Shown here: positions 1 to 31,688 of the stretch, one piece after another
Layout of the letters: every line of letters starts with the position of its first letter
Numbering within the stretch: the stretch's first letter is position 1
Origin: an uncultured archaeon
GTDB taxonomy: Archaea > Asgardarchaeota > Lokiarchaeia > Sigyniarchaeales > SOKP01
Reading direction: 5' to 3'
Assembly (NCBI GenBank): GCA_964629395.1
Contig: CAZVTX010000003.1
Span: 1-32,157, forward strand
DNA length: 32,157 bases
Notes under the pieces: model-generated
The model's database searches: none
The model's input: only the letters and a program-made list of their open reading frames with translations
Told to the model about the DNA's origin: nothing
Made by a program: the position numbers and the translations under genes

Positions 1-168
1 ACCATTAAGAGAAACTCCATTTCCCGCATCGAAGAGTGCTAATTCTCCTGAATGTTTGTCCTCAATTATATATTGATTACAATCCAAAACTAATATTTCG
101 GGGAAATAATAAAGACCATTTATTACTTTTTTACCTTTTTTAACACTACCACTTTGCGAAAAAAACAT
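1..168 (-). CDS. Partial CDS (first 56 codons; continues past the window start), possibly a metallo-beta-lactamase-fold hydrolase
   Basis: Not in the ORF track because it is truncated. A reverse-strand ATG at 168..166 opens MFFSQSGSVKKGKKVINGLYYFPEILVLDCNQYIIEDKHSGELALFDAGNGVSLNG with no stop down to position 1. The N.Y.I.D....ALFDAG strand pattern resembles the start of MBL-fold proteins. The diagnostic HxHxDH motif would lie outside the window. Confidence 0.45.
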   Translation of the reverse strand, partial: MFFSQSGSVKKGKKVINGLYYFPEILVLDCNQYIIEDKHSGELALFDAGNGVSLNG

Positions 169-234
169 ATTTGTTTAAAACAAATTGTTATTTTAATACT
201 TAATTATTATATTAAAAATTCCCGAAAAAATATA

Positions 235-618
235 ATGACTCACAATCAATCTAATATTGAAGAATTAAAATCTAAAATTAAAATAGGAATTAAATTTTGG
301 TTAGAATTTGAGAAGGATGGAAGTCAAAAGAATATAATGGGCTCTGGTTGGGCAAAATTATTAAAAGTTATTAAAGAAAATGAAGATGGTTCATTAATTA
401 GAGCAGCTGAAATATGCGGGTATTCTTATAAATATGCTTGGAATATATTAAAAAGAATTGAGACACGCACGGGTATGCCCGTAGTTGAAACTAAAAAGGG
501 AGGCAAAGGCGGGGGCGGCTCAATTAAATTAAATGAATGGGGTAATTTTTTACTTCAATATTATGAAAAGATTGCCGAAGAAATAAATAAAATTTGTAAA
601 AATATTAATAAAATGTAA
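235..618 (+). CDS. ModE N-terminal-domain-like winged-HTH regulator (COG2005-type, no molybdate-binding Mop domains)
   Basis: ORF track 154..618. The 154..234 extension overlaps the divergent minus-strand start at 168, so the ATG at 235 (MTHNQ...) is preferred. GSLIRAAEICGYSYKYAWNILKRIETRTGMPVVETKKGGKGGGGSIKLNEWG matches the ModE-N signature (HTH followed by GG.GGGG...L...G). Confidence 0.8.
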   Translation: MTHNQSNIEELKSKIKIGIKFWLEFEKDGSQKNIMGSGWAKLLKVIKENEDGSLIRAAEICGYSYKYAWNILKRIETRTGMPVVETKKGGKGGGGSIKLNEWGNFLLQYYEKIAEEINKICKNINKM

Positions 619-1306: not shown

Positions 1307-2842
1307 ATGGATGAACCTGTTCCGGGAACACCGATTATTTTAGATATTGGAAGTGCCTATGCAAAAGTAGGATTTGCAGGTGATCCTAAACCGAGATTCG
1401 TCTTTCCTGTCATCACAGGCACCGAAAAATATAAAGCAGTCATGGCAGATGTGAGCACACGGTCTATATATGTTGGATATGATGCTATGAAAATGCGTGG
1501 TGTATTGAAAGTTAAGTACCCCATTCAAAGGGGTGCAATAATGGATTGGAACGATTATTATGAAATCCTAAATTATATTTTTTATTCATTACTGAGAGTT
1601 GAAGATTTATCTCAGCATCCGGTCTTATATGTTGAACCACCATTTTTTCAGCGTGAAACTAAAGAATATATTGCAAGGGTTCTTTTTGAAACCCATAGAA
1701 TTAAGAGTTTGATGATGGTTCCATCGCCTCTATTATCAATTTTTTCAGTAGGTTTAACAACAGGATTAGTTATTGAGAGTGGTGATGGAACTACTTGGAT
1801 TGTTCCTATTATTAATGGAAGAATATATTATCAAGCGGTTCAAAGGCTTTATTTAGCAGGTATGGATGTAAATCATCATCTAAAAGCAATCTTAATGCGA
1901 GAGGGAATAAGTATTCAATCCTCTGCTTTAGATGAAATTTTAAAAGAAATTAAAGAAAAGAACTGTTATTTTGTTTTAGACCCTCAAAATCCCCCGAAAG
2001 GTTTAGATAATTTTAATTATCCTATGCCTGATGGTACAACTGTAGCAATTCCAAATCATATTTTATATGAAGCACCCGAAGTTATGTTTCAGCCATCTTT
2101 AATTGGAGCTAATACAATGAATATACCCCAAGCCGTAATTTATTGTTTACAAATGATGAGTAATGAGTATTGGAGTGATATGTTATCTCATATTGTTTTA
2201 GCGGGGGGTAATCTTTCTTATAGTGGTTTTGAAGAGCGATTAAAACAGGATTTAAAAAAATTATTACCCCAATTAGGTCCAATACCTAAACCTCAGCCCC
2301 CTCCTGGGGAACAACAAAGTAAACCAAAATTACAAGCAATAGGAGGGAGTCAAAAAACTCAAGACACTTGTCCTAAGTGTGGAAATTATGTAGATCTCTC
2401 AAAAGGACAAGAATTTTGTCCTCACTGTGGTGCGCCAATGAAGGTAGTAGAAATTTCAATAGATTTAGGTGCAACGGATAAAAAACCAAAAAAACGCAAA
2501 TTTGAAGGTAAATGTCCTTTTTGTAAAAAAGAAATTCCTGATAGTAGTTCAATTTTTTGTCCTTATTGCGGGAAAAGTCTTGAAGCATTAGATGTTCCTG
2601 AAATTGATGAAAATATAATTGAACAAGCACCAATTGCTCAAGAATTTGCAGGATTTTATGAAGAAGCTGAAGGGTATGAATTAATTAAATTTTATATCCC
2701 TGAAAACTTACAATTTGCTATTTTTAATGGTGCTTCTATATTAGCAAGTTTACCTTCCTTTCAAAAATTATTTATATCTCAATCGGAATTTCAATCAGAT
2801 CCAAACCTTCTATATAGAGATATTAGTGAAATTTTAGGATAA
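1307..2842 (+). CDS. Actin-family ATPase (Asgard actin/Arp-like) with an internal double zinc-ribbon insert
   Basis: The ORF opens at TTG 1301, and the first ATG is at 1307. It is collinear with eukaryotic actin. ILDIGSAYAKVGFAGDPKPRFVFP aligns with [24 protein letters not shown] (phosphate-1). VIESGDGTTWIVPI aligns with VMDSGDGVTHTVPI (phosphate-2). IVLAGGNLSYSGFEERL aligns with TVLSGGTTMYPGIADRM (adenosine motif). The C-terminal FNGASILASLPSFQKLFISQSEF aligns with [22 protein letters not shown]. Confidence 0.9.
   Translation: MDEPVPGTPIILDIGSAYAKVGFAGDPKPRFVFPVITGTEKYKAVMADVSTRSIYVGYDAMKMRGVLKVKYPIQRGAIMDWNDYYEILNYIFYSLLRVEDLSQHPVLYVEPPFFQRETKEYIARVLFETHRIKSLMMVPSPLLSIFSVGLTTGLVIESGDGTTWIVPIINGRIYYQAVQRLYLAGMDVNHHLKAILMREGISIQSSALDEILKEIKEKNCYFVLDPQNPPKGLDNFNYPMPDGTTVAIPNHILYEAPEVMFQPSLIGANTMNIPQAVIYCLQMMSNEYWSDMLSHIVLAGGNLSYSGFEERLKQDLKKLLPQLGPIPKPQPPPGEQQSKPKLQAIGGSQKTQDTCPKCGNYVDLSKGQEFCPHCGAPMKVVEISIDLGATDKKPKKRKFEGKCPFCKKEIPDSSSIFCPYCGKSLEALDVPEIDENIIEQAPIAQEFAGFYEEAEGYELIKFYIPENLQFAIFNGASILASLPSFQKLFISQSEFQSDPNLLYRDISEILG
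2276..2680 (+). other. Insert within the actin-fold CDS: Pro/Gln/Lys-rich linker plus two CPxCG...CPxCG zinc ribbons
   Basis: PIPKPQPPPGEQQSKPK, then CPKCGNYVDLSKGQEFCPHCG, then KKPKKRKFEG, then CPFCKKEIPDSSSIFCPYCG (Cys codons span 2369..2569). It sits between the segments that align to actin ...ITALAPSTM and KIKIIAPPERKY. Confidence 0.8.
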
Positions 2843-2970: not shown

Positions 2971-4098
2971 GTGAAAAATAACCCCCGAAAATTAACATTT
3001 ATCATATTAATACTTATAATTTCTTTAAGTATAATTCCTTTCGTTCATGCCAAACCCCGTAAAAATTTTTTAACTGATTATATCATTAATCGTCAATTAA
3101 ATGATGAGGGTTTTTCCAATTCAATAAAAGAAAATGATACAATCTCTTATGAAGCAACCGTTTATGGATTAGAAATTTTATCTTATTATAACCTTTATAC
3201 TATTCCTGGTTGGTTTGGTGAAGTAACTACAAATGTAAATACAACTGTAATGGGGGATAATTTAGAAAAAGAGCTTAAGAGTGCATTAAATCAAAATCCG
3301 ATTGATCTTTATGATATATATTTCCTATTAAAAGCATTGGATTTATTAAATCGCTCAATTAGTTCAACAATTAAAAAAAATGTTGAAGGATTTTTAACAG
3401 AAATAGAGCAAACAAGTGGTGGTTTTTCTCCTAACAATGCTACAAATAATATTGATGTAATTGCAACTTGTTTTGCGATCTTAACTTATGACTTGATCGG
3501 AAAAGATGTCCCTGATAAAGATAACCATATCGGATGGATAAAATCCTGTCAAAATTCTGATGGAGGATATGGGGGTAATAGTACATTATCATCCTCAATT
3601 TATAGCACTTATTGTGCCGTGTTGGCAATTATCACATTAGAAAATGTGGATTTATTGGATAATAAAGATAAAACGGTAGAATATTTACAAAATTTTTATG
3701 TGGATGACGAAAATGATGCTTTTAATTATGGAGGATATAAACCTGATGAACATTCTAAATATGCGTTAATAAGCTCAACTTATTTCTGTACGCGAATTAT
3801 TTATTTATTAGATAAAAAAGAATTACATAATGAAACCACCTCAAATTGGATAATTCAACGACAAAACTTTAAAGATGGCGGGTTTGCGGATAATACCGAT
3901 GGTAATAAACAAAAAGTATCTTCGGTTGTGAATTCTTATTATGCATTTGCAATTTTAAAATATACTAATAACCTTAATCTATTAGAAGAAGATGTTTGGG
4001 TTGTTGAATTTAATTGGATTATTTTAATCATTGTTTTATCCGTAATTGGAGTTGCAATCGCCGTCATTATTATTCTTTGGAGAAGACGGAAAATCTGA
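2971..4098 (+). CDS. Secreted, C-terminally membrane-anchored protein with prenyltransferase/squalene-oxidase-type (alpha/alpha toroid) repeats
   Basis: GTG start preceded by GAGGT. There is an N-terminal signal-like segment (KLTFIILILIISLSIIPFVHA), a C-terminal TM plus basic tail (WIILIIVLSVIGVAIAVIIILWRRRKI), and five spaced repeats: NDEGFSN, TSGGFSP, SDGGYGG, NYGGYKP, KDGGFAD. Confidence 0.7.
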   Translation: MKNNPRKLTFIILILIISLSIIPFVHAKPRKNFLTDYIINRQLNDEGFSNSIKENDTISYEATVYGLEILSYYNLYTIPGWFGEVTTNVNTTVMGDNLEKELKSALNQNPIDLYDIYFLLKALDLLNRSISSTIKKNVEGFLTEIEQTSGGFSPNNATNNIDVIATCFAILTYDLIGKDVPDKDNHIGWIKSCQNSDGGYGGNSTLSSSIYSTYCAVLAIITLENVDLLDNKDKTVEYLQNFYVDDENDAFNYGGYKPDEHSKYALISSTYFCTRIIYLLDKKELHNETTSNWIIQRQNFKDGGFADNTDGNKQKVSSVVNSYYAFAILKYTNNLNLLEEDVWVVEFNWIILIIVLSVIGVAIAVIIILWRRRKI

Positions 4099-4156: not shown

Positions 4157-5014
4157 ATGAAAAAAATTTTAGACGGTAAAAAATTAGCCGAGAAACTTAA
4201 TTTAGAACTTAAAGAAAAAATTTCGGAAATTTATAATAAAATAGGTAAAAGACCAAAATTAGCTACTATTCTAGTAGGTGATAATCCCGCATCAAAAGTA
4301 TATGTAAATATAAAACATAGAACTTGCAAAGAAGTTGGGATTGAATCATTATCTATAGAACTTAATGAAAACATCACTAAACAAAAACTTATAGAAGAAA
4401 TTGAAAAACTCAATAAAAATCCTGATATCCATGGGATCCTTCTCCAATTACCATTACCTAAAAATTTGGCACCTTATACTTCAGAGATTTTAGAAAAAAT
4501 TGATTATAATAAGGATGTCGATGGGTTCCATCCAATTAATAGAGGAAAATTATTTGATTATAATGAAGAATTAGCTCCATGTACACCCAAGGGAATTATT
4601 GCTTTATTAGAACATTATAATATAGATCTTAAAGGTAAAGAAGTGGTTGTAATAAATCGATCTAACTTAGTCGGAAAACCGTTAATTTTTATGCTGTTAA
4701 AAAGAAATGCAACGGTAACAGTTTGCCACACATCCACAGTTAATATTGAAAAACATATTGGTAGAGCCGATATCTTAATAGTTGCAGTTGGCGTACCCAA
4801 ATGGAAGAAAATCTCGAAAAATACGATAAAAAAAGGCGTTATTATAATTGATGTCGGTATTAATAAAATAAACGGAAAATTATGCGGTGATGTTGATTTT
4901 GATGAAGTATATGAGAAATGTAGTTATATTACGCCGGTTCCTGGAGGTATCGGCCCCTTAACGGTAAGCTTTTTACTTCAAAATACATTTACCGTTTTTA
5001 ATAAAAATTTATAA
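4157..5014 (+). CDS. folD: Bifunctional 5,10-methylene-tetrahydrofolate dehydrogenase/cyclohydrolase
   Basis: 285 aa. The strings ILDGKKLAEKL...PKLATILVGDNPASKVYVNIKHRTCKEVGI, HGILLQLPLP, DVDGFHPIN, VVVINRSNLVGKP and ITPVPGGIGPLTV are the standard FolD layout. Confidence 0.92.
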   Translation: MKKILDGKKLAEKLNLELKEKISEIYNKIGKRPKLATILVGDNPASKVYVNIKHRTCKEVGIESLSIELNENITKQKLIEEIEKLNKNPDIHGILLQLPLPKNLAPYTSEILEKIDYNKDVDGFHPINRGKLFDYNEELAPCTPKGIIALLEHYNIDLKGKEVVVINRSNLVGKPLIFMLLKRNATVTVCHTSTVNIEKHIGRADILIVAVGVPKWKKISKNTIKKGVIIIDVGINKINGKLCGDVDFDEVYEKCSYITPVPGGIGPLTVSFLLQNTFTVFNKNL

Positions 5015-5142: not shown

Positions 5143-5598
5143 ATGGCGATCTTTGAGGTAGGAATTAACATAGGCAATAGGAATTTATTAGATATTCAGT
5201 ATTATTCAGCATCAAATAATCAAGGATTAGATTCTAATTTAAGAGCGGGGTTTTTATCCGCACTAGAGAGTTTTACAACCGAAGTTTTCGGAGATAATAT
5301 TAATGTCGTTAGCTTGGCTTCTTTTAAACTTGTTTGCCACAGTCAAACGATCTCATTTGGGGATGAGCCAGATAAAAAAGACCTTTTATTATGTTATGCA
5401 ATTATAGAAAAAGATACGGATGTAGATATAGTCAATGAACATTTGAAAATTATTACCGAGCATTTCTTAAATCGATTTTCTTCATATGATATTTTAACAA
5501 AGAAGAAAAAATATTTTAGAAAATTTGAAGAGAGAGTAAATGATATTTTAGGGGATTTACGGCTTAAAATACAAGATAGATTTCGTGCTATATTTTAA
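5143..5598 (+). CDS. Small longin-like (beta-beta-alpha-beta-beta-beta-alpha) domain protein, function unknown
   Basis: 151 aa. The apparent secondary-structure pattern is strand IFEVGINIG, strand LLDIQYY, helix LRAGFLSALESFTTEVFG, strands INVVSLASFKLVCHS and LLLCYAIIEKD, helix DIVNEHLKIITEHFLNRF. It shares the F(L/F)SA(L/I)xSFxxE helix with the N-terminus of the 6829..7782 product. It lies 22 nt upstream of the GTPase gene. Confidence 0.55.
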   Translation: MAIFEVGINIGNRNLLDIQYYSASNNQGLDSNLRAGFLSALESFTTEVFGDNINVVSLASFKLVCHSQTISFGDEPDKKDLLLCYAIIEKDTDVDIVNEHLKIITEHFLNRFSSYDILTKKKKYFRKFEERVNDILGDLRLKIQDRFRAIF

Positions 5599-5620: not shown

Positions 5621-6817
5621 TTGAGCTCAAATATCGGCCCAGAAGCTAAAGCTGCTTATCAAAGATATCTTGACGCAGGTTCTCTGGAAGAAAAAATTAA
5701 ACGATTGGAAGAATTCTTATCATTAGTTCCAAAACATAAGGCAACAGAAAAAATTGTTGCTTTAAATAGATCCAGATTAGCTAAATTAAAGAGAGAGCAG
5801 GAAGAACGTAGATTAAGAGTTAAAAAGAGTATCGGAAAAACATTAAGCCCTTTTTCGATAAAAAAAGAAGGTATACAATTAATTCTAATAAGTGACTATT
5901 ATTCTCCTGGTGCGGGTAAAACTTCTCTATTAAATTATTTAACAGGTGCTGCAAAGGAAAAAATTGGACGCTTTACTGCACTTCCGGAAATAGGTATATA
6001 TAAATATAAAAAAATTAGATTTCAAATTGTAGATATGCCCTCTCTAATGGAGGGTGCATCTCAAGGAGTAGGAAATGGTAAAGAGATTTTATCAGCTATA
6101 AGAAGTTGTGATTTAATATGTTTTATAATTGATCTTTCGAGAAATTATAAAACTCAAATGGAACATCTTTTAAAGGAGTTGAATCGTGCAGATATAAAAA
6201 TTAATACAAATCCTCCTCCAATTGAAATCCAAAAAACGGGCGCTAATAAAATTCAAGTATATTATTTAACTCCAGAAGCAAAAAATATTAAAAATATCGA
6301 TGAATTTACGGAAAAGGTAAGAGAAATTGTTTATGAAAATGGAATAAGGAATGGTATCGTTAAAATTTATGGCAAAATAAAATTAGGTGATATTGTTGAT
6401 GCTTTAACACCTTCAATGGTATATAAAAAAGCAATAATTATCGCTACTAAAGGAGATTTACCGCATACTGGAAAGCGTTTTGAAAATCTTAAAAAAGATT
6501 ATTCACACCTTTTTGAAGTAATAATCGGTTCAAGTGTTAAAAAACATAGTTTCCCGCAAAATTTCGGTGATATAATTCTGGACGTTTTGGAAAAAATTAA
6601 AGTTTATACAATGAATAATGGTGTTATTGCAGAAAAACCATTAATACTTGATAAAAGAGCTACTGTTAAAGATGTCGCTATTAAAATACACAAAAGTTTC
6701 TATGAAAAGTTTGACTATGCAATTATTATTCGGGAGAAAGATAAACAAAAACGAAAACGTGTTGGATTAGACTTCCAAATGCAAGAAGGAGATATTATTG
6801 AGATTCATATAAAATAA
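5621..6817 (+). CDS. DRG/Rbg-family (Obg-like TRAFAC) GTPase with C-terminal TGS domain; divergent G motifs
   Basis: TTG start. The N-terminal KHKATEKIVALNRSRLAKLKRE aligns with the DRG [22 protein letters not shown]. The P-loop is YSPGAGKTS. IVDMPSLMEGASQGVGNGKEILSAIRSCDLICFIIDL aligns with the DRG DLPGIIEGA...R...LI..V.D region. An S5D2L-like insert is present (IKINTNPPPIEIQKTG), G4 reads ATKGD, and there is a TGS-like tail (KVYTMNNG...LILDKRATVKDVAIKIHKSF...RVGLDFQMQEGDIIEI). Confidence 0.85.
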   Translation: MSSNIGPEAKAAYQRYLDAGSLEEKIKRLEEFLSLVPKHKATEKIVALNRSRLAKLKREQEERRLRVKKSIGKTLSPFSIKKEGIQLILISDYYSPGAGKTSLLNYLTGAAKEKIGRFTALPEIGIYKYKKIRFQIVDMPSLMEGASQGVGNGKEILSAIRSCDLICFIIDLSRNYKTQMEHLLKELNRADIKINTNPPPIEIQKTGANKIQVYYLTPEAKNIKNIDEFTEKVREIVYENGIRNGIVKIYGKIKLGDIVDALTPSMVYKKAIIIATKGDLPHTGKRFENLKKDYSHLFEVIIGSSVKKHSFPQNFGDIILDVLEKIKVYTMNNGVIAEKPLILDKRATVKDVAIKIHKSFYEKFDYAIIIREKDKQKRKRVGLDFQMQEGDIIEIHIK

Positions 6818-10700: not shown

Positions 10701-10818
10701 TTTTTTTCATTTAATTTAATTTTATTCTTAAAATTAATTCGTTAAATCTATATAAAAATTTAAATGCTCTATGTATATTTATTTCTTTATACCAATTAAA
10801 AATTTGTATTTCCATATT

Positions 10819-11769
10819 ATGCCAGATGTTTATATTAAAACACCAAATTTAGATTCCATCTTTGAAAAATGGAAAAATCAAGAAGTAAGAAGAAATAAAA
10901 AAAAGATGGAAAAAGAATTTGGTACGAAAGGTGCAGTATTTTCGCTAAATCAAATTAGTGCTGCTGAATTTGTTAAAAATACAAATAAGGAAGCTGCGAT
11001 ATATTTTGCAATCAAAAAATCAACCGCTCCAGCTAAAGGCAGCGAAATAAAGGCAATACCTGCTTCTAAAATAAATAGAGAAGTTTTTTATTCCTTTAAA
11101 GGACAAAAAGTAAATAAAGAAAATTGGAAGGATAAAGAAAAGGTGCCAATTTTTGAATCTATAAAACAAATTCCATGTGATTCATGTAAAGGAAAAGGTT
11201 TTACTCAACAGAAATGTAAATCTTGTAAAGGAACAGGAAAGGTTCAATTGAAAGGAACAGTATTAGTCGGAGAAAACAAAGAAAAAAAAACACACATTTT
11301 TGAGATTCCTTGCGCTGAATGCTATGGAACGGGCAATATACAAGCTAGATGCCGAGAATGCGGGGGTCATAAATATAATTTTCAGTATGAAATCCGTCCC
11401 GTGCCCTTTATTACTGTTGTCACAGGTATCCCCGTATTACATGCAAGCACAAGAAAGTATGAGAAAGAAATAGGAGAAGATCTTCATAAATTAATCAAGG
11501 AGGTAGAAGGCATCAAATTTAAAGATTTCAAAACATTAGAAGCTAAGGCTGAAGCATCATTAGGATATTTCAATAAAAATATAAAAAAAGCAATTTCACT
11601 AGCAAAAAGTGATTATACACAATTTCAAAAAGATAAAAATGCAGAGATAATTACACAAATTCATCTATTCCCGCTGATACAATTGATCTGTACAACAAAA
11701 AGAGGTTCTAATTTTGAGATCTATAGTATTGGCTCGCAAAATGGCTTTATAATTTATTCAACATTTTAA
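10819..11769 (+). CDS. Protein with a DnaJ cysteine-rich (CR)-type zinc-finger module (4x CxxCxG) but no J domain; function unknown
   Basis: ORF track 10771..11769. The first 16 codons are low-complexity, so the ATG at 10819 (MPDVYIKTP) is preferred. The motifs are CDSCKGKG, CKSCKGTG, CAECYGTG and CRECGGHK, arranged as two nested pairs as in the DnaJ CR domain. Confidence 0.7.
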   Translation: MPDVYIKTPNLDSIFEKWKNQEVRRNKKKMEKEFGTKGAVFSLNQISAAEFVKNTNKEAAIYFAIKKSTAPAKGSEIKAIPASKINREVFYSFKGQKVNKENWKDKEKVPIFESIKQIPCDSCKGKGFTQQKCKSCKGTGKVQLKGTVLVGENKEKKTHIFEIPCAECYGTGNIQARCRECGGHKYNFQYEIRPVPFITVVTGIPVLHASTRKYEKEIGEDLHKLIKEVEGIKFKDFKTLEAKAEASLGYFNKNIKKAISLAKSDYTQFQKDKNAEIITQIHLFPLIQLICTTKRGSNFEIYSIGSQNGFIIYSTF

Positions 11770-12908: not shown

Positions 12909-13523
12909 ATGAATGAAAAATTTGATTCAAAAGAAAATAAATTTAAATCTAATTATAAACAATTTTTAGGTTATTTTTTACCGACAAATCCCGTTGTTAT
13001 TTCAATCACCGCAATCTTTGCTGCTTTAACATGTGTTCTTACAATGATAATATCTATTCCAATACCAGCCACGCAAGGTTATATCAATATCGGTGATGCT
13101 GCCGTTATGATAACAGGCTTATTATTTGGACCGATAATAGGCGGATTAGCGGGTGGAATAGGTTCAATGTTAGCGGATATATTTTTAGGATATACAATTT
13201 ATGCTCCAGCAACTCTAATTATAAAAGGATTAGAAGGATTTTTAGTAGGATTTATTTCGGATCCTAAAAATCGGGAGAAATTACATATTAGAGATTTTAT
13301 TGCAGTAATTATTGGTGGAATGGTCATGGTATTGGGATATTTTCTTTATGAGATTATCCTTTGGGGTGTTGAAATCGCTTTAATTGAAGTATTTCTAAAT
13401 GGTATCATTCAATTCGGTTTAGGTGCAACAATCGCAATAATTTTTACCTTAACGGCAAGAAAGAATATTACGGATAGTCTTAATCAAGTATTCGAGAAAG
13501 TATTTGTTGTAAACGATTCATAA
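12909..13523 (+). CDS. ECF-transporter S-component-like integral membrane protein (substrate unknown)
   Basis: 204 aa with about 5-6 TM segments. INIGDAAVMITGLLFGPIIGGLAGGIGSMLADIFLG is typical of ECF substrate-capture subunits. No EcfA/T genes are nearby. Confidence 0.65.
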   Translation: MNEKFDSKENKFKSNYKQFLGYFLPTNPVVISITAIFAALTCVLTMIISIPIPATQGYINIGDAAVMITGLLFGPIIGGLAGGIGSMLADIFLGYTIYAPATLIIKGLEGFLVGFISDPKNREKLHIRDFIAVIIGGMVMVLGYFLYEIILWGVEIALIEVFLNGIIQFGLGATIAIIFTLTARKNITDSLNQVFEKVFVVNDS

Positions 13524-14957
13524 TAATGTAATAAGAGTATTTAATGCATCAATTACCTTTTTCCCATTTTCCGTTATAAAATAAAAAACTTTTTTTCCTT
13601 CTTTTTTGCGAATTATAAGATTTTTTTGTTCTAATTCCTTTAAATGTTGATAGATTGCAGCTCGACTAATAGAACCAATTATTTCTTTTAATTTTGTTCC
13701 GTTAATCCCTTTTTTTTCCGCCATTCGAATTTGGGATAATATTTTTAATTTTGTACTTAAGATGGCACCCATACCAGCGGTTTTAGCTCTTGAAGATAAT
13801 GCCTCTAATACATAAGGTGCCTTTAATCCACTTCCGGTAATTATACAAACGACTTTATCATTTTTTATATCAATTAAATCCTCTTGGATTAAAGAATTTA
13901 TAGCTGCAATCGTCATGGCGGAGGCAGGTTCTGCAAAAATTCCTTCGTTATTAATTAATTCTTCTACTGAATTTAAAATTAGATTTTCAGGAATGGCAAT
14001 TGCAAAACCATTATTTGTTTTTAATATATCTAAGACTAAATCTTTATACATAGGTTTTTTAACTAATACTCCTAAAGCGATAGATTTTGAAAATCGCTGG
14101 TGTATTTCGACTACATTTCTCTCTTTTTCTATAAAATCATCAACAATTGGAGCTAATCCCTGAGGTTGAACGCTAGCAAATTTAGGAATTTTAGAAATAA
14201 TTTTACTATCTTTAAGTTCTTTAAATCCCTTCCAAAGACTTATTAATAAACCGCCACTTCCAGTAGGTATAATAATCCAATCAGGAAGGCCAATCTCATT
14301 AAATATTTCATATGAAATTGTTTTTTGGGCTTCAATTGTTAAAGGATTAAATTCAGGTGTACATTGATAAAATTCTTTTTTATATTTATCAGATAAGGCT
14401 TCATTTAAGCAATCATCAACGGTTTGCCCCTTAACAATTATTTCCGAATTATAGGCAATCATTTGAGCTTTCTTCCCGATATCAATATCGTCAGGAATAA
14501 TATTTACGCATCTCATTCCTTCTAAGGAGGAATATGCAGCTAATGACGCTCCTTGATTACCATTAGATGCACAAACTACACTATTAAACTCCCAGCTTCG
14601 AGCATGTGAAATTAATAAAGCAGCAGCCCTATCTTTAAAGGAATTAGTTGGATTCTTAGTCTCATCCTTAAAATATAACTTTTTTATACCTAATTTCTTA
14701 CCTAATTTTTTTGATGGTAAACATTTTGTTATCCCCTCTCCCATTGATACGAAAAAATCTTTATCAATTTTAGGGAAGGCAAAAGAAAAATCCCAAAAAG
14801 AAGTTAATTGATTTAATGCTCCAAAATTCTCTCTAAATGAGCTTACATTTGTTTTTACCAGAAGTAAGCCGCCACAATGAGAACATTTATAAATTATATT
14901 ATTCGCTTCTACAATTTTTCCGCATTTAATACATGAAAATTTTACGGGATATGAAAT
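13518..14957 (-). CDS. Threonine-synthase-like fold-type-II PLP enzyme with N-terminal Zn ribbon and C-terminal winged-HTH fusion; apparent ATT start
   Basis: The ORF track gives 13518..14744 (M at 14744). The same frame stays open upstream to a TAA at 14975..14973. That upstream stretch encodes SYPVKFSCIKCGKIVEANNIIYKCSHCGGLLLV, the Zn ribbon found at the N-terminus of archaeal ThrC. The PLP-lysine motif is KNPTNSFKDRAA; other motifs are GNQGASLAAY and IIPTGSGGLL. The last roughly 90 aa form a wHTH (LKILSQIRMAEKKGINGTKLKEIIGSISRAAIYQHLKELEQKNLIIRKKEGKKVFYFITENG). Confidence 0.8.
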   Translation of the reverse strand: MSYPVKFSCIKCGKIVEANNIIYKCSHCGGLLLVKTNVSSFRENFGALNQLTSFWDFSFAFPKIDKDFFVSMGEGITKCLPSKKLGKKLGIKKLYFKDETKNPTNSFKDRAAALLISHARSWEFNSVVCASNGNQGASLAAYSSLEGMRCVNIIPDDIDIGKKAQMIAYNSEIIVKGQTVDDCLNEALSDKYKKEFYQCTPEFNPLTIEAQKTISYEIFNEIGLPDWIIIPTGSGGLLISLWKGFKELKDSKIISKIPKFASVQPQGLAPIVDDFIEKERNVVEIHQRFSKSIALGVLVKKPMYKDLVLDILKTNNGFAIAIPENLILNSVEELINNEGIFAEPASAMTIAAINSLIQEDLIDIKNDKVVCIITGSGLKAPYVLEALSSRAKTAGMGAILSTKLKILSQIRMAEKKGINGTKLKEIIGSISRAAIYQHLKELEQKNLIIRKKEGKKVFYFITENGKKVIDALNTLITLL

Positions 14958-29600: not shown

Positions 29601-31688
29601 ATGAGGAATAAAAAAATGGCATTCGAAAAAAATGTGAAAAGCTTAGTTCATTTCATGGCTTTTCCGGGACCTAGATTAGGAATGTCTACAATGTTAGGAG
29701 AAGCGCCTGAGAAATATTTATTAGATTCTATCAAATTTATAAAAAGTTTAAAATATTTTGATGGAATAGAAGTAACCCACATTAAGGATCCTGAAATAAA
29801 AGCGAAATTCATAGAAGCAATTAAGGATTTTAAATTTATTACTTATTCTGCTGAACCAATTCAATTAATAAACGAGGATAACCTAATTGCGCCAACGGAT
29901 ATTAGTTCGATTGATGAATTAGAGCGTAAGAATGCCGTTAAGAGATTAAAATTTTACTTAAAGGAAGCATATGAATACGGAGCAAAACAATTTACCTTTT
30001 TAAGCGGTCGGGATCCTGGTACTGAAAATGGTCTAAAAGATCGAAGGGTTGCTTACGGTTCTTTGGTCAAATCGATAAATGAGTTATGCTTATATAATAA
30101 AGAAATTGCAAAAAAGCACAAGAAAAAGCCTATGTTAATGACTTTAGAAACTTTTGATCGTTTAGATGAACCAGGTTGTAAAAATCAATTAATTGGTCCT
30201 TCAGATGAGGCTCGCACTCTAGCTGTTGAGATAAGAAATGTTTATCGTCATCAGGAATTTGGGCTTCTCTACGATTTATCCCATATGTATTTATTAAAGA
30301 ACGGTTATTCTCATGAGACGGTTGATGTATTAAGAGTTATTGCGGATTTTTTAAATTGGGTTCATATTGCCAATAGTGTTTCGGATAAAAATGATCCTAA
30401 TTATGGCGATTTACATGTTTCTATGGATTATCCAAATGGGAATGTAACTCCCGAAGATTTAAAGGAATTCTTAAGAGTCCTTAATGATATTGAATATAAA
30501 GGTGGTATTGGTTTTGAATACATGCCCCGAGGGCGTCAATTAAGTGAATCAGTTATAAAAATTGCAATGGCGGGATTTGAAGAAGCCAGACAGCAAATTG
30601 ATGTTAATTATGCATTAGGCTCTTATAGATTTAAGACAAGGAGATTTTTACCGGAAAAAATCTTCTATATGATTACTGAATTAAAGAAAAATAATATTGA
30701 TGAGATTTTATTTAATGAATATCAAGAGCGTGTCAAAAGAGAACATCCATGGGATTCTAATTTGGTAATAATTGCTGCAGATCATCCCGCGAGAAGAGTT
30801 ACAAATGTTGGCAATGACCCTCTTGCAATGGGTGATAGACAGCAATATTTAGGGAGGATTATTCGCGTTCTTATGCTTGATGAGATTGATGGCGTAATGA
30901 CAACACCTGATATTATGGATGATTTAATACTCCTAAATTATATTCACAAGCAAAATGGAGGAAAGAGCTTTCTTGATAATAAAATCTTAATAGGTTGCAC
31001 TAATAGAGGAGGACTTCAAGGTTCGCAATATGAAATGGATGATTTAGTCACAGCATATACAGTAGAGGATATTCATAAATTAGGGCTCGATGGAGCTAAA
31101 ATGATGTTTCGATTAGATTTAAAAACAAATATGGCAAGATATAGCCAGAGAACTTTAGAAACATGCGCTAAAATGATAAGAGAATGCAATAAATATAATA
31201 TTCCCGCATTTTTAGAACCATTGACCGTAGAGCGCCAAAGAGATGGTAGTTATAGAGTAATACTTACTGCTGATGAGCTAATAAAGACAATCGGAATCGC
31301 AACGGCTTTAGGCGGGAGATCTTCAAATATATGGCTTAAGATTCCTTATGTTGATGATTTTGAACATGTTGTAAGAAGCACTTCAAACCCTATATTAATG
31401 CTCGGCGGTGCCAGTACTGGTAATCCTACTGATATACTGGAAAATTTTGAGAAAGGAATGGGAGCAGGTAAAAATGTGAAAGGATGCCTCGTAGGAAGGA
31501 ATCTTTTATATCCTGGTTACGATGACCCGAGAGCCGTCGGACTTGCAGTATCAAAAATAATTAAAGAGAATCTTAGTACGGAAGAGGCTGTTAAAATTCT
31601 TGCACAAAATCGCGGTAAAGAGATGGATTTATTAACGGCAACTATTATGAACATATCATATACCGCAGATGATATTGGATATTTATAA
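29601..31688 (+). CDS. Two-domain fusion: xylose-isomerase-like TIM-barrel (sugar-phosphate isomerase/epimerase family) plus DhnA/COG1830-type class I aldolase-like TIM barrel
   Basis: An alternative ATG is at 29616. The N-terminal half has LMTLETF, LLYDLSHMY, WVHIANS and IGFEYMP, the E / D..H / H / E metal-ligand spacing of the AP_endonuc_2 family. The C-terminal half has IIAADHPAR, IDGVMTTP, AKMMFRL, WLKIPY (candidate Schiff-base Lys), MLGGAS and CLVGRNLLYP (compare GRN(I/V)FQ of DhnA-type aldolases). Confidence 0.7.
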   Translation: MRNKKMAFEKNVKSLVHFMAFPGPRLGMSTMLGEAPEKYLLDSIKFIKSLKYFDGIEVTHIKDPEIKAKFIEAIKDFKFITYSAEPIQLINEDNLIAPTDISSIDELERKNAVKRLKFYLKEAYEYGAKQFTFLSGRDPGTENGLKDRRVAYGSLVKSINELCLYNKEIAKKHKKKPMLMTLETFDRLDEPGCKNQLIGPSDEARTLAVEIRNVYRHQEFGLLYDLSHMYLLKNGYSHETVDVLRVIADFLNWVHIANSVSDKNDPNYGDLHVSMDYPNGNVTPEDLKEFLRVLNDIEYKGGIGFEYMPRGRQLSESVIKIAMAGFEEARQQIDVNYALGSYRFKTRRFLPEKIFYMITELKKNNIDEILFNEYQERVKREHPWDSNLVIIAADHPARRVTNVGNDPLAMGDRQQYLGRIIRVLMLDEIDGVMTTPDIMDDLILLNYIHKQNGGKSFLDNKILIGCTNRGGLQGSQYEMDDLVTAYTVEDIHKLGLDGAKMMFRLDLKTNMARYSQRTLETCAKMIRECNKYNIPAFLEPLTVERQRDGSYRVILTADELIKTIGIATALGGRSSNIWLKIPYVDDFEHVVRSTSNPILMLGGASTGNPTDILENFEKGMGAGKNVKGCLVGRNLLYPGYDDPRAVGLAVSKIIKENLSTEEAVKILAQNRGKEMDLLTATIMNISYTADDIGYL

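Follow-up and report, generated by a model that had tools for sequence, protein, structure and literature searches.

Actin-related proteins (ARPs) in which an actin-fold scaffold carries large loop insertions that touch a non-actin partner are familiar from eukaryotes, where nuclear Arp4, Arp5 and Arp8 contact DNA or nucleosomes in this way. Their insertions are not known to contain zinc ribbons. ARPs of Asgard archaea are known as a group: the 'Asgardactins' fall into five clades (PMC8850707), and Lokiarchaeum ossiferum possesses, besides lokiactin, three ARPs with no known function (PMC9834061). Analysis of a 32,157-nucleotide stretch of an uncultured archaeon of the Lokiarchaeia (Sigyniarchaeales; assembly GCA_964629395.1, contig CAZVTX010000003.1; the whole stretch is called the window here) revealed a gene at 1307..2842 whose product is an actin-like protein with a 135-residue insert carrying two zinc ribbons. 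This protein and its relatives are named Zn-ARPs in this study. The zinc-ribbon arm is what is new in this architecture: no description of an actin or ARP with such an arm was found in the searchable literature on Asgard actins and ARPs (mention elsewhere is possible), which agrees with a preliminary description of the window that had considered the architecture to be undescribed. With respect to function, we give about an even chance to the reading that Zn-ARP is a poorly hydrolysing ARP that would dock on lokiactin and tether it through the zinc-ribbon arm.

The gene and the parts of its product are as follows.

1307..2842, plus strand: gene of Zn-ARP with 511 codons and a stop; translation from the ATG at 1307 begins MDEPVPGTP..., in agreement with the N-termini of homologues
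1307..2275, plus strand: N-terminal part of the actin core, residues 1-323, comprising subdomains 1, 2 and 4 and most of subdomain 3
2267..2290, plus strand: exit motif L-P-Q-L-G-P-I-P, residues 321-328, closing helix alphaK; here the chain departs from the actin fold
2276..2680, plus strand: insert, residues 324-458 (135 residues), in the alphaK/beta15 loop of subdomain 3
2363..2431, plus strand: zinc ribbon 1, residues 353-375, DTCPKCG-x12-CPHCG; present in every member of the clade
2432..2512, plus strand: inter-ribbon linker, residues 376-402; a conserved V-x-I-x-I strand, then a variable basic stretch (here KKPKKRKF)
2513..2572, plus strand: zinc ribbon 2, residues 403-422, CPFC-x11-CPYCG; absent from a subfamily of 479-496 residues
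2573..2680, plus strand: acidic tail, residues 423-458, with a conserved A-x-E-F motif (E446-F447, nucleotides 2642..2647)
2681..2839, plus strand: C-terminal part of the actin core, residues 459-511; strand beta15 and the barbed-end cleft helix (FNGASILASLPSFQ)

An in-frame TTG is present two codons 5' of the ATG at 1307; the starts of homologues resemble the ATG form. In the alignment the N-terminal part of the core holds the conserved D-loop (residues 36-52) and the MRGVLK motif.

Comparison of the whole protein with Pfam identified Actin (PF00022) at E=8.6e-71 (239 bits, cutoff 27), the match being split into residues 9-321 and the C-terminus with the insert between them. The best PDB sequence match was 9wc4, 'HC1 actin' (1.1e-73), followed by Arp1 (6e-71) and many actins (about 4e-68), and the actin and Arp1 matches obtained with phmmer included residues 460-498 as a second matched stretch. 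A four-subdomain actin fold was predicted by AlphaFold2, with a predicted local distance difference test (pLDDT) score above 90 for the core, and Foldseek matched the predicted model to actins at E of about 1e-30 with target TM-scores of 0.82-0.88. The Foldseek comparison used the first AlphaFold2 model, built from a shallow alignment of 49 sequences; this model was poor in subdomain-2 confidence and was replaced by a model from a 91-sequence alignment for the pLDDT values. Scores against NCBIfam models were far below the cutoffs for MamK (30.5 bits, cutoff 400), crenactin (24.8 bits, cutoff 630) and likewise syringactin, and neither Hsp70 nor ParM families occurred among the best Pfam and NCBIfam matches listed for the whole protein. 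Affiliation with ParM, MreB, Hsp70 or crenactin was rejected on this basis, as the best matches belong to the actin family. By its Pfam Actin match and its PDB matches of 1e-68 to 1e-73 the core is an actin-family protein, and the preliminary description, which had set it in this family and not with ParM or Hsp70, was correct in this respect.

Over 370 core columns, the window protein is 38% identical to 9wc4, 36% to Arp1, 35% to actin, 28% to Arp2 and 24% to Arp3; eukaryotic actin and 9wc4, in comparison, share 60% identity. Identities of 35% (actin) and 38% (9wc4), together with a 135-residue insert, place the protein outside the conventional actin and lokiactin pattern of about 58-60% identity with no large insertions. 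In a neighbour-joining tree, a rough method, all Zn-ARPs grouped together, apart from actin, Arp1, Arp2, Arp3 and 9wc4; Arp1 paired with the sequence P0161 and not with Zn-ARPs. On this rough tree, Zn-ARP is a distinct monophyletic clade of Asgard ARPs outside actin, Arp1, Arp2, Arp3 and the lokiactin-type actin, and it is probably a paralogue that arose inside the Asgard actin radiation. Orthology with Arp1, as in the JGI automatic name 'centractin', is not supported: Arp1 is among the top PDB matches, yet its core identity is no better than that of actin, it stands separately in the tree, it lacks an insert and it keeps the catalytic residues. Orthology with Arp2 or Arp3 is likewise not supported, given the 24-28% identity and the separate clade in the tree. 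Lokiactin and other Asgard actins, represented by 9wc4, share with Zn-ARP the actin fold and resemble it in the D-loop, the subdomain-2 motifs and the barbed-end cleft sequence; Zn-ARP differs from them in its 38% core identity, the loss of Q137 and H161 (actin numbering), an arm of 100-210 residues and a clade of its own.

The insertion site was mapped by alignment with fungal actin, Arp1, Arp2, Arp3 and 9wc4, the Arp2 and Arp3 sequences used matching 1k8k_B and 1k8k_A exactly. In the window protein, the insert takes the place of a loop of subdomain 3 at actin residues of about 322-328, between the elements named alphaK and beta15 in the Arp3 literature. The stretch equivalent to actin 305-340 comprises 36 residues in actin, 9wc4 and, by inference, Arp1, 47 in Arp2, 52 in Arp3, 170 in the window protein and 133-246 in divergent Zn-ARP relatives. 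The insertion site therefore has a precedent, because Arp2 (+11) and Arp3 (+16) carry inserts in the identical loop; judged by the aligned lengths and motifs, this precedent covers the site and not the size or content of the insert, since the Arp2 and Arp3 inserts are short and without a zinc ribbon, and both proteins keep Q137 and H161. A literature search on the Arp3 alphaK/beta15 insert returned irrelevant matches only. Two statements of the preliminary description, that the insert is within subdomain 3 and that actins and lokiactins have no such module, are borne out by this alignment, in which actin, Arp1 and the lokiactin-type 9wc4 lack the insert.

Analysis of the insert alone revealed matches above the gathering cutoffs of two Pfam families, Zn_ribbon_3 (E=1.6e-14, 53.2 bits, cutoff 27) and DZR, the double zinc ribbon (E=9.3e-13, 48.6 bits, cutoff 27.3), scores well outside what chance would produce. 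The motifs CPKCG-x12-CPHCG, KKPKKRKF and CPFC-x11-CPYCG and the acidic tail, as given in the preliminary description, are exact in the translation of 1307..2842. With C355, C358, C371 and C374 in ribbon 1 and C403, C406, C418 and C421 in ribbon 2, the insert, by profile and motif, carries two C4 zinc ribbons. DZR and Zn_ribbon_3 are both generic, and neither has an assigned function; features specific to the Zn-ARP clade are the position of the ribbons within an actin fold and their setting of conserved stalk, linker and acidic tail. Searches for a specific functional or structural relative of the ribbons gave only non-significant generic matches in PDB, compared by sequence, and only generic ribbon families in Pfam.

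The order of elements is constant across the clade: exit motif, stalk, short strand, ribbon 1, strand, linker, ribbon 2 and tail. The exit motif has the consensus L-P-x-L-G-P-[IL]-P; in the main family G324 and I326 never vary and L323 and P327 hardly do, and the motif is kept in divergent members. The stalk is variable, rich in proline and charged residues and net positive in 66% of members, and is followed by a short 'K-L-x-x-phi' strand. Ribbon 1 has the consensus D-T-C-P-K-C-G-x(10-12)-F-C-P-x-C-G with a 'phi-x-I-x-I' strand directly after it, the variable inter-ribbon linker is net positive in 75% of members, and ribbon 2 has the consensus C-P-x-C-x-K-...-F-C-P-[YF]-C-G. The tail is net acidic in 96% of members and contains an E-[FY] motif in 98%; this motif is retained in divergent and single-ribbon members, and the main family shows almost no variation at E446 and F447. 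With hhalign the two ribbons aligned at a probability of 98.4%, which shows ribbon 2 to be a copy of ribbon 1 that has diverged; the same program assigned the single ribbon found in the short subfamily to the ribbon-1 type.

A search of 5.8 billion proteins at E<=1e-10 identified 381 homologues, of which the best 120 are 492-519 residues long, are 60-77% identical to the window protein at 97-100% coverage, and all match PF00022 and zinc-ribbon families. When one genome per species was scanned, 122 relatives came to light; the 80 loci kept from these all have a full-length gene at 60-67% identity. Clustering at 50% reduced the main family to a single representative; remoter members (39-49% identity) share the design, and a profile of these recovered 68 further clusters, each of which has two ribbons (four CxxC motifs) or a single one (two CxxC motifs). 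None of the 68 was without a ribbon. The single-ribbon subfamily of 479-496 residues includes 'Sigynarchaeota'. In total, more than 190 protein clusters and no fewer than 80 species-level genomes of Asgard archaea share the architecture, which is most abundant in genomes of the Lokiarchaeia type. Judged by this range, the zinc-ribbon arm is the defining trait of a large, old and abundant Asgard ARP clade and not a peculiarity of one gene. In databases the members occur only under automatic designations, for example 'zinc ribbon domain-containing protein', 'centractin' or, for the single-ribbon subfamily, 'rod shape-determining protein', and one JGI annotation reads 'actin-related protein/RNA polymerase subunit RPABC4/Spt4'.

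Loci from metagenome-assembled genomes labelled Thor-, Odin-, Hod-, Hermod- and Heimdallarchaeota showed synteny of the Loki type in the examined cases (including L005, L023, L002 and other JBHL* entries), with 27-31% GC and 60-66% identity to Loki-type loci. These labels look unreliable and give no evidence of a wider range, because synteny, GC content and identity are all of the Loki type. One further locus (L041, DATKTW010000100.1), labelled 'Candidatus Nanopelagicaceae bacterium', contains most of the Asgard syntenic block and is probably mis-binned.

In an alignment of 49 sequences from the main family the eight cysteines are invariant, as are D353, G359, P372, D412, S415, P419 and G422, and the ribbon-1 cysteines remain invariant in 91 sequences. 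The ratio of non-synonymous to synonymous substitution (dN/dS; Nei-Gojobori, 31 independent orthologue pairs) was 0.083 for the core and 0.21 for the whole insert; within the latter it was 0.088 for ribbon 1, 0.31 for ribbon 2 and 0.135-0.28 for the linkers and tail, the inter-ribbon linker having 0.28. The whole arm is under purifying selection. An unusual architecture such as this one might, in the absence of anything else in favour of the view, be blamed on a misassembly, a chimeric contig, an intein or other selfish element, or a decaying pseudogene, and the preliminary description had itself named an assembly artefact at 2276..2680 as a possibility. The probability of this is negligible. 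Misassembly and chimerism are excluded because the same colinear architecture is conserved across genomes, in more than 190 clusters from independent assemblies and 80 species-level genomes, and neutral decay is excluded because the frame is intact and the dN/dS of the insert indicates purifying selection. Against an intein or mobile element, no intein-type family was present among the best 25 Pfam matches of the insert, no splice motifs were found at the junctions LGPIP... and ...ELIKF, and the insert is retained, and conserved, in the mature protein. The check proposed in the preliminary description, whether orthologues conserve the insert, thus has a positive answer.

The AlphaFold2 model from 91 sequences had a mean pLDDT of 84.4; the D-loop reached 62, and within the arm the ribbons reached 76-80, the stalk about 55, the inter-ribbon linker 44-47 and the tail 46-66. 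The model suggests an arm with two small folded units carried on flexible tethers, for which packing on the core is not confidently predicted. An arm that acts within its own molecule would be a regulator, its acidic E-[FY] tail folding back to enter the barbed-end cleft of the same molecule or to contact the basic linker, and the ribbons serving as a redox or zinc switch that gates entry into filaments. The acidic-aromatic motif is indeed the most widely conserved feature of the arm other than cysteines, the cleft is conserved and linker and tail are oppositely charged; however, AlphaFold2 docks the tail without confidence (pLDDT from below 50 to 66), two ribbons exceed the needs of a switch, and beyond its cysteines ribbon 1 is as constrained as the core (D353, T354, G359, L364, P372), which suggests an external interface. 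Such autoregulation is considered decidedly improbable.

Residues Q137 and H161 of actin position and activate the hydrolytic water. In the window protein they are replaced by S141 and W164, respectively, and in all seven aligned Zn-ARPs Q137 is replaced by S or A and H161 by W, T, F or Y, whereas both are kept in actin, Arp1, Arp2, Arp3 and 9wc4 in the same alignment. Other residues of the nucleotide pocket are kept (D11, K18, G156, G158, K213, E214, G301 and G302), and further substitutions in the window protein are G15 to A, D154 to E, T303 to N and K336 to Q. Across Zn-ARPs, E replaces D154 with the exception of a single divergent member, most have A, C or S at G15, and divergent members have E or Q at S14. 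The preliminary description had the protein match actin across all nucleotide-binding motifs, which is true of many pocket residues and not of Q137, H161, D154 and G15; the 'ATPase dynamics' it had envisaged are doubtful, as Q137 and H161 are replaced in every aligned member. We infer that Zn-ARP would bind nucleotide and hydrolyse it poorly.

Contact surfaces of the actin fold were conserved above the core mean. In 91 sequences the core mean was 0.65, compared with 0.72 for the D-loop, 0.77 for subdomain 2 and 0.75 for each half of the barbed-end cleft. The motifs of the D-loop and of subdomain 2, G-x-P/E-K-Y-Q/K-x-x-M and MxxRGVLK, resemble those of 9wc4, and the hydrophobic plug, D-loop and cleft of Zn-ARPs are actin-like and conserved. 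These surfaces bear on the view that Zn-ARP is no cytoskeletal protein and instead is a subunit of a chromatin or transcription complex, similar to nuclear Arp4, Arp5 and Arp8, with ribbons that dock on DNA or RNA polymerase. The large insertion and the lost catalytic residues would fit this view, several nuclear Arps having also lost theirs, as would a generic likeness to RNA polymerase and TFIIB-type ribbons and the 'RPABC4/Spt4' annotation. On the other hand, the strongly conserved D-loop and cleft suit actin-actin contacts better, the matches of RNA polymerase type are below the family cutoffs, and no helicase or remodeller gene is adjacent in divergent lineages; we regard a chromatin or transcription role as very unlikely.

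The same actin-like and conserved D-loop, hydrophobic plug and cleft would also allow Zn-ARP to form a homopolymeric filament of its own, a second actin-like cytoskeleton in which ribbons and basic linker bind DNA, as a ParM-like polymer for segregation or positioning with a built-in cargo adaptor. The net positive charge of the inter-ribbon linker in 75% of members points in this direction, and so do the closest weak matches of the ribbons, which are associated with nucleic acids (RpoP, RpoM, Nop10 and NOB1). The loss of Q137 and H161 speaks against a dynamic, hydrolysis-driven polymer of the ParM type, the basic stretch is poorly conserved (0.21), and no DNA-related gene is consistently adjacent. 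In addition, transcripts of the non-lokiactin actin homologues of L. ossiferum, which may or may not include a Zn-ARP, are several-fold below those of lokiactin (PMC9834061). Overall, a DNA-binding homopolymer is rather unlikely.

In the reading that we favour, the tethering of lokiactin, the actin core would bind nucleotide with little hydrolysis, and Zn-ARP would engage lokiactin filaments, or itself, through ordinary longitudinal actin-actin contacts. The arm would then project from the outer surface of the filament as a tether to a second structure. The best candidate for this target would be the cell envelope, reached through a membrane-anchored alpha/alpha-toroid protein encoded downstream, with nucleic acid or another cytoskeletal polymer as alternatives. 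Actin K326 and K328, where the arm leaves the fold, lie on the outer F-actin surface contacted by tropomyosin, and residues 322-325 are in contact with subdomain 4 of the following subunit. The inserts of Arp2 and Arp3 do not keep actin subunits from being added at the barbed ends of these proteins.

Zinc ribbons can fill the proposed tether role, because a precedent exists in the CdpC protein of Haloferax volcanii (HVO_0399, DUF7093), in which two linker-joined CPXCG-related zinc ribbons (C3H and C4) anchor FtsZ1 to the membrane, one ribbon domain attaching to the membrane through an amphipathic helix and the other binding FtsZ1 (bioRxiv 10.64898/2026.07.16.738847). The likeness consists of two CPxCG-type ribbons and a disordered linker between a cytoskeletal polymer and a membrane, and no homology is demonstrated; CdpC is a separate small FtsZ-binding protein and not an insert in a polymer subunit. 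Of the 73 Pfam families with a match to the Zn-ARP insert, the best 25 did not include DUF7093.

The gene of the toroid protein is located directly downstream.

2971..4098, plus strand: downstream neighbour and candidate functional partner of Zn-ARP; signal peptide, prenyltransferase-like alpha/alpha toroid, MVEFN motif, transmembrane helix and C-terminal WRRRKI

This protein matched Pfam Prenyltrans at E=9.4e-22 and protein prenyltransferase beta subunits at about 1e-7. The C-terminus of such neighbours is conserved in three parts, 'MVEF[ND][YF]', one transmembrane helix and a 'W-R-[RK]-R-R-[IL]' tail, which persist even in a lineage of 60% GC. The syntenic block of the main family comprises genes for a ModE-like helix-turn-helix (HTH) protein, a CBS protein, Zn-ARP, the prenyltransferase-like (PT-like) toroid protein, FolD, an unknown protein of 150 residues and a DRG GTPase, and the toroid gene is directly 3' of Zn-ARP in the main-family loci long enough to show it. 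Taken alone, this synteny is weak evidence, because the main-family loci, all at 27-35% GC, represent one lineage. Divergent loci tell more: they span 26% to 60% GC, encode Zn-ARPs with 33-49% identity to the window protein and differ in their other neighbours, and a toroid-type gene or a split version of it came next in all seven cases with downstream sequence. The membrane-anchored toroid gene is thus the constant companion of Zn-ARP in the loci seen, and this always-adjacent gene provides the one concrete lead to a partner.

The C-terminus of the toroid protein also resembles a sorting signal of the archaeosortase or sortase type; the NCBIfam models of C-terminal sorting signals gave no match to it.

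Several points weigh against the tethering of lokiactin to the envelope. Coupling to a partner through the arm, as proposed in the preliminary description, is plausible but putative, as is every partner considered here. For generic zinc ribbons, nucleic acids are no less frequent binding partners than proteins, and comparison of the ribbons with PDB by sequence gave no significant relative, the best match (E=0.03) being generic (rubrerythrin, Nop10, RpoP). That an arm leaving the fold at the alphaK/beta15 loop need not block polymer contacts is a presumption drawn from structures of F-actin and Arp2/3. The cytoplasmic tail of the toroid protein comprises only about six residues, and it may be a docking site or, less favourably, part of a cleaved sorting signal. 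The gaps of about 128 nucleotides on either side of the Zn-ARP gene hold TATA-like boxes, because of which Zn-ARP and its neighbour are probably separate transcription units. Finally, FolD also stays beside the pair of Zn-ARP and toroid genes in several lineages, so part of the synteny may reflect inertia and not function.

A bolder version of the tether would make Zn-ARP the cytoplasmic half of a transmembrane linkage between lokiactin and the cell surface, the core sitting on or in filaments and the arm gripping the toroid protein, as an archaeal counterpart of MreB-RodZ or actin-talin-integrin that could help to shape protrusions. The site shared with Arp2 and Arp3 would then stem from an old propensity of this loop, in pre-eukaryotic ARPs, to accept inserts that bind partners. 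This version in its entirety is quite unlikely.

Results from this study describe an abundant, strongly conserved and modular clade in which an actin scaffold bears a flexible arm with zinc ribbons and an acidic motif. The modular design and the constant membrane-spanning genomic companion lead to a concrete, testable hypothesis that links the archaeal actin cytoskeleton to other structures. Archaea, too, gave rise to ARPs that became specialised through inserted loops and lost catalysis, whether related to the eukaryotic ones or not. The Lokiarchaeia include the cultured Lokiarchaeum ossiferum and Prometheoarchaeum syntrophicum, in which the predictions would be directly testable if these strains carry Zn-ARP.

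Among the other genes of the neighbourhood, the ModE-type HTH protein (154..618, plus strand; TIGR00637 E=1.6e-16, below cutoff) is encoded 5' of Zn-ARP in most main-family loci and is also present in the divergent locus L087. FolD, a methylene-tetrahydrofolate dehydrogenase/cyclohydrolase (4157..5014 in the window), follows the PT-like gene in most lineages. In single-ribbon loci its place is taken, on the opposite strand, by MTD, the F420-dependent methylene-tetrahydromethanopterin dehydrogenase (L088 6458..7297, L092 7861..8706); this is an in-place swap of analogous C1 enzymes. A 151-residue protein without a family match (5143..5598, plus strand) is encoded 22 nucleotides upstream of a DRG-type GTPase (5621..6817, plus strand; MMR_HSR1 and TGS), the pair being present in nearly all main-family loci that reach that far, and the 151-residue protein could be a regulatory partner of DRG. 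In one divergent subfamily, Vps4 and ESCRT-II genes were found 2.5-5 kb upstream of Zn-ARP (L085 1554..3779, L090 286..2487), with sugar-metabolism genes standing between them and Zn-ARP.

Elsewhere in the window, three further genes encode unusual products. The gene at 13521..14744 (minus strand) encodes a pyridoxal phosphate-dependent enzyme (PALP, E=1.6e-62) fused to a C-terminal winged-helix DNA-binding domain of the HxlR, PadR or HTH_11 type. The product of 10771..11766 (plus strand; 332 residues) has as its sole family match a DnaJ-type CXXCXGXG zinc finger, below cutoff, with no J-domain match reported. A fusion protein of 695 residues, encoded at 29601..31685 (plus strand), joins a xylose-isomerase-like TIM barrel (AP_endonuc_2) to a Cgl0159-like domain (E=6.4e-70).

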